Source: Escherichia coli O157:H7 (GTDB lineage Bacteria; Pseudomonadota; Gammaproteobacteria; Enterobacterales; Enterobacteriaceae). Taken from it: 64,000 nt of DNA. The position numbers were made by a program. Positions 1 to 3,000 of this stretch are shown piece after piece; positions within the stretch are counted from its first letter, which is position 1; each line of letters opens with the position of its first letter. The DNA lies in NCBI RefSeq assembly GCF_013167455.1, contig NZ_CP038328.1; one strand, written 5' to 3'.

Positions 1-3000
1 CGATAATCACGCTGCGCCCCTTCGCCATCAGCCGGTTACCCATCGCCGCTGCAAGGTGATTTTTCCCGGTGCCGGTTTTACCGCTGAACACAAAATTCGT
101 GCACCCGGTCATCAGTTCGTCAGCTATGGATTTGGCCTGGCTCAGCGCGTATTTTTGCCCGTCGTTCTGCACCTGATAATTCGCAAACGAGCATTTGCTG
201 TGCAGAGGCTGGATGCCCGAACGATTCAGGATTTTTTCCACCCGCAACTGGTGATTCTGGCGGTTAATCTCCTCGCTGCGTTTTCGTCCTTCAGCAAGTT
301 GCCATTCCCGCCACTCCTCCACCGTCCGGTACGGTGGAACCGACGCCTGTGGTGCAAGTCTGCGAATACGTTCAAGAACCCCGGCTGCCGCAATGTTTTT
401 CATGCCACATCACCCCCTGAATCCCGGCGGAATTTCGGTATCCGGTTCAGAAATATGATTCACACAACGCTGGTTGTTCGTGCCGCTTACCGGGAGCAAC
501 CAGGGGTTTTCAAAATTCCGGTCCGGCCCAAAAAACGTCGTCGCTCGCTGAACAAATTCCGTTCCCGCTTTCCCGGTCGCCGCCAGGTATCTCGCGTAAC
601 GCCTCACACCATCCAGCATGGTCTCTGGTGGCACCCCCTCGCGCAATCTGGCCTTCCAGGCACTGAAAGCGGATTTCTTCGGGTTTGCCCCAGCACGCAA
701 CGGGTATTCCCGCCAGACCTGTTCGAACACATCCGGATAATCCACTCGTCCCACAGACTGCCCGGTGCTTTCCGGGACTACCCGATCGGCTTCCCGCTGA
801 ATGGCGGAATCGGCTTCAGGCTGCTGCAGTTGGTGTGATTGCTCCGACCCTGCGGTCATCACCTGCTGCACAGCGCCCGAATCGGCTTCCGGTGTCGTGC
901 CTGCTGGCTGACCAGGATTGACGGTCTGAACATCCCCTGCCTGGTTCGTGGTGTTTTTTTTGCCATGAACCATAGTGTTTTTGTCCTGTTCCTGTTCTTT
1001 CTCCTGCTCCTGTTCCTGTTCTTGGCTTCGAAGCCCCTTAAAAGCCCCTTCGAAGCCCCTTACCGAATTTCGGCTATTATTCCGCCTCACATCCAGATGG
1101 AAATCCGTTTTATATCTGTCGTAAAACACTGACAGAAAAGCGTTTTCAGGTAATGATGCATACTCATTCCTGACACCTGCACAACGGTTATCGCCAGGCT
1201 TCAACGTTTCCCCAACCTGCCAGGCTGCCATTTCATGGACCCAGACCATCTCTGCATCATGGTCATAGCTACAAAAACCAGCTTCAACAGCCCTTTTAAG
1301 CCCCTTTGAAGCCCCTTCCAGACCAAGCCCGGTTTCATGAGCAAGGTATAAAACTGGCAGGTAATACAAACCCAGCATATTTGCGTGAGGGGATGTCATC
1401 AGGTAAAAAGCAACAACTTGCGCTTCTGCACCCGCCTTTCTAAGTTCTCTCCCCGTTTCTCCCAGCCAGAATCGCGGAGAAACTTTTGCGTAATCACGCA
1501 TGGCTACCTCATCTGGTGCCGAACCTTCCTCCGGATATAATCTGTGGTTCCCAATCGACAGAACCAGAGGAGGTTCGACATGTATTTTTTGAAAAGCCTT
1601 TATCAGGCTCATGTATTAAATGTTGCAGCAACAAACCGCTGGTGTAACAGCCCCGAAATGCTCCCGGATTACAGAGCCTGGCTGCGCGCCGAAACATACC
1701 TTCGTCTCGACATATTGATTAGCGAACTTCAAAAAGAGACTGCATCCATTCATAACCTTCAGGGTATCGACGCTGTTCGCATTCTGGTATCGCGCCATAG
1801 TGCTCTCTCAATAATTGAAGTGCGTCATCTCTCTTTTTCTGAACTGATTTTCTTGCTTCAACCAGCTCTGGAATCAGCGAATATCCCGCCGGAAGTGATC
1901 CAATACCCACCTCATGTTGACGAGCAGTTACAAGATGTGCCATACAACCAGCGTGCTGGATTGACTCCCTGCTCAGAGGCTGAATGGGATCACTCTCTGC
2001 TGAAGAAATACCAAGATTTGTATAATCCTCAATAAGCCCGGCACACGCTTCTGCATCAGCCAGCTTTATTCTGGTTTCCTTGCGCTGTTCTCTGGCTGAC
2101 AAACGCCAGAGCAGCGCATTAGCTTTATGTATCAACCACTCTGCCAGCTCCACATCAGATAAACCGCCACGCCAGATGTGCGGACTGTTTTCGTAAACGC
2201 TCAGTGTCAATTTTTTGTCATTACTCATATTTATTACCCAATTAATGCACAGCCAGAGTGTTTCCTGCCGGGCCACCACGATTCATCTGATCGAACAGAA
2301 CGATCGCTGATGCAACGAAATCATCAATATCTTTCACCAGCCGTTCCTTCGTCTCTACCAACTCCCGAAAATAAGCGGAACTGTGGCTGCGCATTCGGGC
2401 CACCAGCGGAGGCGGCATCGCTTTTTCGATCGCTGGTAACAACGCCTGAATTTTTTTAACCGCATCAGGAGTGTCTTTCTCCACCCAGCGGAAAATTTTC
2501 TGAGTATTGCGAGCCATGGCTTCCGGATGGCTGTCGTCATACAGTTCCGGGAACGTCATTCCCAGCTCGAAATACGCTTTGGTAATTTTCGCAGCCGGTA
2601 CTTTTTCGCCGTCCGGATGCGCCCAGGCATTCATCGCCATGCGGATGTGTTCATGCTTGATTTTCATGAATCAACTCCGGCGCATTTGATGTGTTAACCT
2701 TACATCCAACAGGTAAACCGTCGGTTGGGTTAGGATAAATATCTGGGCGGATTTCATGCGGGGTAACTTCCCACTTCATTAGTTGGCATAACGGAATTAC
2801 CTGCTTTGGGGGAACGCCAAAGCTAAACCATTGCCAAACAGTCTGTTGAGCGACCCCCATATAACGACCTATTTCAGCCTGAGTGTATTTCTGCCTAATT
2901 TTTTCGCGAGTGCTATCTAGCATTTTGCCCTCCTCTAAAAACTATAAGCAAAGCCTACAATAAAAAACTGTATGCAATCAACAGTTTTTTATTGTGATGC

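Follow-up and report, generated by a model that had tools for sequence, protein, structure and literature searches.

We describe a pair of overlapping phage regulator genes in a 64-kb stretch of Escherichia coli O157:H7 DNA (contig NZ_CP038328.1; the whole stretch is hereafter called the window, and positions are counted from its first base). The two genes encode a YdaS-like protein of 90 amino acids (aa) and a YdaT-like protein of 141 aa, and they very probably supply the Cro analogue and the CII analogue, respectively, of the immunity switch of prophage Sp4, which would work as in prophages CP-933P and Rac. What is established for Sp4 is the family membership of the proteins, the near-identity of one of them to a crystallised YdaT, the presence of an exact operator in the homologous place, the clusters of further operators and the way the genes are arranged. 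Every essential of the mechanism has already been published (mBio 2021; Acta Cryst D 2023; NAR 2025), and the Sp4 pair, closely copying the switch worked out in the sister prophage CP-933P, is a correctly recognised but ordinary case.

Locus and gene arrangement

Reverse-complemented, the window matches the Sakai chromosome across Sp4 and the flank on the yccA side, with 3 mismatches in 21,395 bp, and the home of the regulator pair is this lambdoid prophage. Sp4 is probably the CP-933M of strain EDL933; we infer the name from the report that CP-933M carries a homologue of paaR2-paaA2-parE2 (mBio 2021 paper), which fits the Sp4 locus. The repressor gene of Sp4, together with the paaA-parE toxin–antitoxin pair beside it, would then be the three-component homologue that was described on CP-933M. 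In O157:H7 genomes with 100% identity over positions 1600–4000, RefSeq has the same two coding sequences with the same 17-bp overlap (locus 9643–10068 and 10052–10324).

An initial annotation of the window had described a Cro-like and a YdaT-like gene with a 17-bp overlap, running divergently from the repressor gene, and both points hold. The two open reading frames (ORFs) lie on the minus strand and the repressor (3032–3433) on the plus strand, and bases 2651–2667 are common to both ORFs, in agreement with RefSeq. The same annotation gave the gene order as repressor, operator, cro-like, YdaT-like, initiator and helicase loader; this arrangement is present, except that an extra gene stands between ydaT and the initiator and that the loader is cut by the window edge (Table 1).

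The YdaT-like protein

A YdaT profile search, proposed earlier as a check, was positive: the 141-aa protein scores above the gathering threshold of Pfam PF06254 (YdaT_toxin; 38.9 bits, cut-off 21), over residues 48–99 only, and matches phrog_163, ‘CII-like transcriptional activator’, at 4.3e-46 across residues 1–128. Moreover, it aligns without gaps over all 141 residues with PDB 3c4r (88.7% identity) and with PDB 8bt1, the YdaT of CP-933P (85.8% identity). When the residue roles assigned in PMC9986795 are carried over, the recognition helix (alpha3, residues 50–63) differs from that of 8bt1 at 3 positions and retains R60 and W61. The tetramer core (positions 103, 110, 111, 114, 117, 118 and 121) reads L/L/V/I/F/V/A here versus I/L/V/V/F/V/A, with every residue identical or conservatively changed. 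This degree of identity to solved structures suggests that the protein adopts the YdaT helix-turn-helix (HTH) tetramer fold.

Of 5426 complete E. coli genomes, 3254 contain DNA resembling ydaT, at up to 6 places per genome and with Cro-type partners that are variously annotated, and sequenced phage records hold ydaT copies more than 90% identical that are annotated ‘activator protein cII’. In two loci from other strains (L004 and L006), nearly the same ydaT is combined with a CI-type repressor of the LexA family (S24 peptidase) and with a partner of the P22-Cro or Cro/CI type. The replication module joined to ydaT in L006 is also a different one, composed of DUF1376 and replication protein P. 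Read at the sequence level, these two loci show genes reassorting freely around the ydaT module.

The YdaS-like protein

The partner gene is preceded by a Shine-Dalgarno sequence, GGAGG, at 2933–2929, read on the minus strand. Its 90-aa product matches Pfam PF15943 (YdaS_toxin) with 38.8 bits against a cut-off of 30 and phrog_35 at 9e-29, and its best phage matches, at 47–50% identity, are the annotated Cro proteins of Gifsy-1/2, Stx2a phages and Rac-SA53. A sequence search of the PDB with the protein gave no match at E ≤ 0.01. YdaS of CP-933P binds the operators of the repressor and represses the repressor promoter (PMC8630535); by analogy with that protein, to which it is only 22.8% identical, the 90-aa protein would likewise share the repressor’s operators and repress the repressor promoter.

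The YdaT-box and the 17-bp overlap

The inverted repeat TTGATT-N6-AATCAA was identified by experiment as the operator of CP-933P YdaT, for which it has been footprinted (PMC9986795), and the YdaT-box has also been footprinted in Rac (PMC11879457). A match without mismatches, the sole one in the 64 kb, lies at 2657–2674 with the ATG of ydaT in its spacer; the number of matches with at most 1 mismatch expected by chance is 0.33. The box is identical in CP-933P (locus L002) and differs by 1 mismatch in L004, L006 and Rac, and it occupies the same position in CP-933P and Rac.

Alignment of the Sp4 region with the CP-933P locus and with L004, which has a P22-Cro-type partner, places the start of homology exactly at the box, the ydaT side being near-identical and the ydaS side unrelated. 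The final 7 codons of the ydaS-like gene (LIHENQA) cross the box and the first bases of ydaT, in the frame TTG ATT CAT GAA AAT CAA GCA TGA, so that its first stop lies inside ydaT, whereas the ydaS frame of CP-933P ends at the TGA of ATGA. Homology beginning at the box would explain the overlap, since the ydaS frame continues to the first stop that it meets within ydaT. Judged from this alignment, mosaicism produced the 17-bp overlap incidentally, when an immunity cassette was joined to a conserved ydaT module at the box.

Operators and candidate promoters

The intergenic region between the ydaS-like gene and the repressor gene measures 108 bp and holds three 15-bp operators, and a further two lie beyond parE. 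All four perfect matches to ACARTN5AYTGT in the window fall in one of these clusters, OR-like or OL-like. In their 24–25-bp spacing and their layout, the clusters resemble OR1–3 and OL of lambda. Candidate promoters can be placed by hand around them (Table 1). OR and OL operators, as well as a PL933P promoter, are documented for CP-933P (PMC8630535), in which the paaR2 mRNA is leaderless (PMC8630535), a feature that the candidate PRM mirrors here. On the other side of the ydaS-like gene, the hexamer of the candidate PRE-like promoter begins 20 nt past the YdaT-box; in CP-933P, TACAAT stands 21 nt past the box, within the cloned PRE933P fragment, the bounds of which we took from the published primer table.

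Among the 3 mismatches to Sakai in the 21.4 kb is a T-to-A change at position 4025, in the operator at 4016–4030. This operator reads ACAGTTTTTTATTGT in Sakai and TR01, the same as the middle OR operator, and ACAGTTTTTAATTGT in the window, where it is a perfect inverted repeat of 3991–4005.

The proposed switch

In the lysogen, the repressor would sit on the 15-bp operators of OR (2957–3020) and OL (3991–4030), and this occupancy would silence the promoter for ydaS, ydaT and the replication genes. When repression is lost, or upon infection, the Cro-like protein would take the same operators and stop repressor synthesis. A YdaT tetramer would bind TTGATT-N6-AATCAA over its own start codon (2657–2674) and then activate a promoter running back through ydaS into the repressor-paaA-parE operon. 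Activation of that operon would restore repression, as lambda CII does at PRE.

The scheme is modelled on CP-933P and Rac. Experiments on CP-933P give PaaR2, YdaS and YdaT the roles of CI, Cro and CII, respectively, at a locus that shows bistability (PMC8630535); the YdaT of CP-933P activates PRE933P and is not toxic (PMC8630535), and structurally it is an HTH tetramer that footprints the box, termed OM (PMC9986795). In Rac, YdaT requires the box to activate racR, and there is cross-activation between the proteins of Rac and CP-933P (PMC11879457). The genetic context, namely the cro/cII position of the genes, has also been used to argue against the toxin label (PMC5917428). The suggestion in the initial annotation that YdaT is a CII-like regulator rather than a classical toxin thus matches the literature on both CP-933P (PMC8630535, PMC9986795) and Rac (PMC5917428, PMC11879457).

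Weighing the assignment

Several points weigh against this assignment of the pair as Cro and CII analogues. For the Sp4 copy, we infer binding, promoter positions and in vivo activity by homology with CP-933P and Rac. A consensus sigma-70 scan of 2200–4300 and a relaxed scan returned no convincing PR or PRM and no strong intergenic site; the positions given for PR, PRM and PRE are therefore hand-assigned weak matches. Furthermore, the segment past the box, where the activated promoter is expected, is not homologous to CP-933P, and the activated promoter of Rac lies ~190 bp from its box (PMC11879457). With TACAAT 21 nt past the box in CP-933P and the activated promoter ~190 bp away in Rac, the geometry in Sp4 is uncertain and may differ. 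Finally, Pfam names both protein families ‘toxin’, and Rac YdaS and YdaT are toxic when overexpressed (PMC5700377, PMC5700373, PMC11879457).

The lack of strong consensus promoters in the sigma-70 scans also suits a different explanation, which we regard as unlikely: the genes would be intact but inert relics of a defective prophage, kept by the young clonal O157:H7 lineage, with a switch that no longer operates. A 681-bp stretch beside ydaT occurs in 456 E. coli records, at 99% identity or more in 451 and at 80–90% in the other 5, and because of this near-clonality it offers no evidence of purifying selection on the Sp4 copy. Non-Stx lambdoid prophages of O157:H7 have, moreover, been reported not to yield particles (PMC8630535). 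However, both ORFs, the repressor, the toxin–antitoxin pair, five operators, the exact YdaT-box and the integrase (9078–10097) are all intact, the equally cryptic CP-933P has a functional and bistable switch (PMC8630535), and sequenced phages carry the >90% identical YdaT genes noted above.

Less credible still, indeed very improbable, is a toxin–antitoxin or two-toxin module that poisons the host unless repressed, an idea nourished by the Pfam names and early predictions, by the RefSeq product name ‘toxin YdaT family protein’, by the toxicity of RacR depletion or of Rac YdaS/YdaT overexpression (PMC5700377, PMC5700373) and by the filamentation that Rac YdaT causes (PMC11879457), but countered by a CP-933P YdaT that, at 86% identity, is a non-toxic transcription activator (PMC8630535), by a structure that is an HTH DNA-binding tetramer and no toxin fold (PMC9986795), by the tracing of Rac YdaT toxicity to misregulation of rcsA (PMC11879457), by the cro/cII position of the genes (PMC5917428) and the operator on ydaT’s own start codon, and by the genuine toxin–antitoxin pair, paaA-parE, that adjoins. 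On the literature and the YdaT structure, we reject a toxin–antitoxin identity for ydaS-ydaT.

Neighbouring genes and RNAs

The features around the regulator pair are collected in Table 1.

Table 1. Features of the Sp4 switch region, with window coordinates; ECs numbers are those of the Sakai counterparts.
Feature	Position	Strand	Description
ydaS-like gene (ECs_1070)	2651–2923	−	90-aa HTH regulator, putative Cro analogue; first gene of the rightward-type operon
ydaT-like gene (ECs_1071)	2242–2667	−	141-aa regulator, putative CII analogue; POU-like HTH domain and C-terminal tetramerisation helix (predicted)
YdaT-box (OM operator)	2657–2674		TTGATTTTCATGAATCAA; inverted repeat over the ydaT ATG (2665–2667), inside the ydaS/ydaT overlap
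Tripartite OR-like operator	2957–2971, 2981–2995, 3006–3020		15-bp pseudo-palindromes ACARTN5AYTGT, spacing 24–25 bp
OL/PL-like control region	3991–4035	+	operators 3991–4005 and 4016–4030 flanking a candidate promoter
Candidate PR	TTGATT (2981–2976)-18-TAGGCT (2957–2952)	−	hand-assigned weak match; overlaps the OR-like operators
Candidate PRM	3020–3025 (−10)	+	TAAAAT; hand-assigned weak match; overlaps the OR-like operators; transcript start would coincide with the repressor ATG
Candidate PL	TTGACA (4005–4010)-19-TAGATT (4030–4035)	+	hand-assigned; would read into the DUF1391-ydfB-dicF-dicB operon
Candidate PRE-like promoter	2692–2700	+	extended −10 TGtTAACCT toward the repressor, antisense to ydaS; read from sequence
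Repressor gene (ECs_1069, ‘phage repressor protein’)	3032–3433	+	133 aa; DicA-like HTH N-terminus, PaaR2-like C-terminus; putative CI analogue
paaA-parE toxin–antitoxin pair	3461–3939 (PaaA 3461–3652, ParE 3652–3939)	+	co-oriented with the repressor gene, described as co-transcribed
DicF small RNA	5612–5663	+	Rfam 76.9 bits (gathering score 48); upstream of dicB
dicB	5849–6037	+	like DicF, downstream of the PL-like promoter; the dicBF operon of Qin has the same layout
Replication initiator/DnaD-like loader-organiser gene (ECs_1073, ‘phage replication protein’)	410–1612	−	RefSeq start 1501; phrog_1701 1.3e-148, phrog_3729
DnaC-like helicase loader, N-terminal part	1–403	−	first 134 codons; remainder beyond the left edge of the window
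ECs1072-family ORF	1580–2035	+	NCBIfam ECs1072 family 105.7 bits; RefSeq-annotated
Antisense ORF	1719–2228	−	phrog_8304 6e-120

The repressor matches Pfam HTH_3 at 2.3e-12 and the NCBIfam DicA subfamily with 51.5 bits, below the cut-off of 101; it is 36.9% identical to PaaR2, with the shared residues mostly in the C-terminal third, and 29% identical to DicA. Both members of the adjoining toxin–antitoxin pair are intact, matching Pfam PaaA2 (5.6e-19) and ParE_toxin (2.9e-17) and sharing 62% and 67% identity with PaaA2 and ParE2, respectively. A terminator-like hairpin follows parE at 3958–3973, with the OL-like operators just beyond. An Rfam scan of 1–10500 found no match inside the coordinates of the regulator pair; the only matches, DicF and a sub-threshold STnc100 at 5677–5826, lie farther right. 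No tRNA was found in 1–14000. The Sp4 integrase ORF (339 aa), intact in the window, is annotated as frameshifted in strain TR01, the indel difference starting near 9445.

Among the replication genes, the loader fragment matches IstB_IS21 (24.8 bits) and, in partial matches, the NCBIfam models PRK12377 (268 bits) and DnaC (141 bits). At ~30% identity between Sp4 and CP-933P, the two initiators nevertheless end in the same 19 residues, RCVNHISEPDTEIPPGFRG (410–470 here; 5352–5411 in L002), a tail with a weak match to the C-terminus of DnaT. This common tail may be a docking tail for the DnaC-like loader or, alternatively, another mosaic junction.

Between ydaT and the initiator (1580–2228), two long ORFs overlap in antisense. 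In two variant strains, both substitutions within the plus-strand ORF fall at the third codon position, and three sites in the minus-strand ORF fall at the second position. Furthermore, a 1-bp deletion at 2195 frameshifts the minus-strand ORF in L005, and four more strains share its 680-bp match length. This comparison comprises 4 distinct substitutions and one indel, a very small sample, and provisionally the coding gene of the stretch is most likely the plus-strand ORF at 1580–2035, in which case the phrog_8304 family may be built on a spurious ORF. Searches of phages with blastn and tblastn for more distant relatives of this intervening stretch gave none.

Implications and cross-talk

The two genes are already in RefSeq, and for the 86%-identical sister copy there are footprints, reporter data obtained in vivo and a crystal structure. 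The practical uses of recognising a Cro–CII-type pair in Sp4 are to correct a misleading ‘toxin’ label at the locus and to provide explicit operator coordinates for the Sp4 switch.

Going by sequence comparison, Sp4 and CP-933P are heteroimmune, because their Cro-like proteins, repressors and operators differ, yet they have YdaT and the YdaT-box in common, and this bears on cross-talk among prophages of enterohaemorrhagic E. coli. Several heteroimmune lambdoid prophages with near-identical YdaT and an identical box provide the setting, such as Sp4 and CP-933P/Sp12 in strain 319, a single genome in which Sp4-type and CP-933P-type loci coexist. We tentatively raise the possibility, short of an even chance in our view, that YdaT from one derepressed prophage acts in trans on the boxes of other prophages and boosts their repressors. 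Cross-binding between Rac and CP-933P, shown with plasmids, partly demonstrates such cross-talk (PMC11879457). If true, the result would be a cross-prophage ‘stay lysogenic’ network that operates regardless of immunity specificity.

Comparison with known systems

The initial annotation had likened the locus to switches of the Rac/CP-933P type, which is supported with a refinement: Sp4 is far nearer to CP-933P (YdaT 86%) than to Rac (YdaT 33.6%). CP-933P (Sakai Sp12) has the same plan, with repressor-paaA-parE divergent from ydaS-ydaT, followed by an initiator and a DnaC-like loader. Identities between the two prophages range widely, from 85.8% for YdaT through 67% for ParE, 62% for PaaA, 36.9% for the repressor and ~30% for the initiator to 22.8% for YdaS. 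As in Sp4, an identical YdaT-box covers the ydaT start codon and an OL/PL-like region lies downstream of parE. In contrast, the Cro-like proteins (90 aa in Sp4, 100 aa in CP-933P) are essentially unrelated, the N-termini of the repressors differ, and the operators are of the ACARTN5AYTGT type in Sp4 but of the GTTTAGTAA type in CP-933P, neither locus having the other’s motif. In addition, ydaS and ydaT overlap by 17 bp in Sp4 and by 4 bp in CP-933P, and Sp4 has an extra ECs1072-family gene after ydaT.

Rac of E. coli K-12 has the same gene order and family, and its YdaT begins with the identical N-terminus MKIKHEHI (PMC11879457; PMC5917428). Its YdaT-box at the start codon is one base off (ATGATT...AATCAA). 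YdaS shows 36% identity across 47 residues, and the two repressors have nothing but the HTH in common. Furthermore, ydaS and ydaT of Rac are 22 bp apart, and Rac is without a toxin–antitoxin pair.

Qin, also of E. coli K-12, has a DicA-type repressor architecture and a leftward DUF1391-ydfB-dicF-dicB operon, as in Sp4. Its dicC and ydfX (L008, 2847–3351) overlap by 17 bp, the same as the Sp4 pair, and ydfX, truncated to 96 aa, is a distant YdaT-family remnant: the identity is 39% across 82 residues, and the box over the ydfX ATG, TTGAACAATGAAAATCAC, is degenerate. DicC is 17% identical to the 90-aa protein, and Qin lacks paaA-parE beside dicA.

With lambda, the Sp4 pair shares position and logic: cro and cII open the rightward operon, which is transcribed divergently from the repressor gene, and Cro uses the repressor’s operators. 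The likeness is one of functional analogy, as sequence homology was undetected in these searches. CII acts as a tetramer from a site that overlaps the beginning of cII, and it switches on a promoter that reads backward to the repressor gene (PMC8630535; PMC9986795). The two activators nevertheless differ in how they read DNA, YdaT having a POU-like domain, 222 symmetry and an inverted-repeat site, whereas CII recognises a direct repeat (PMC9986795).

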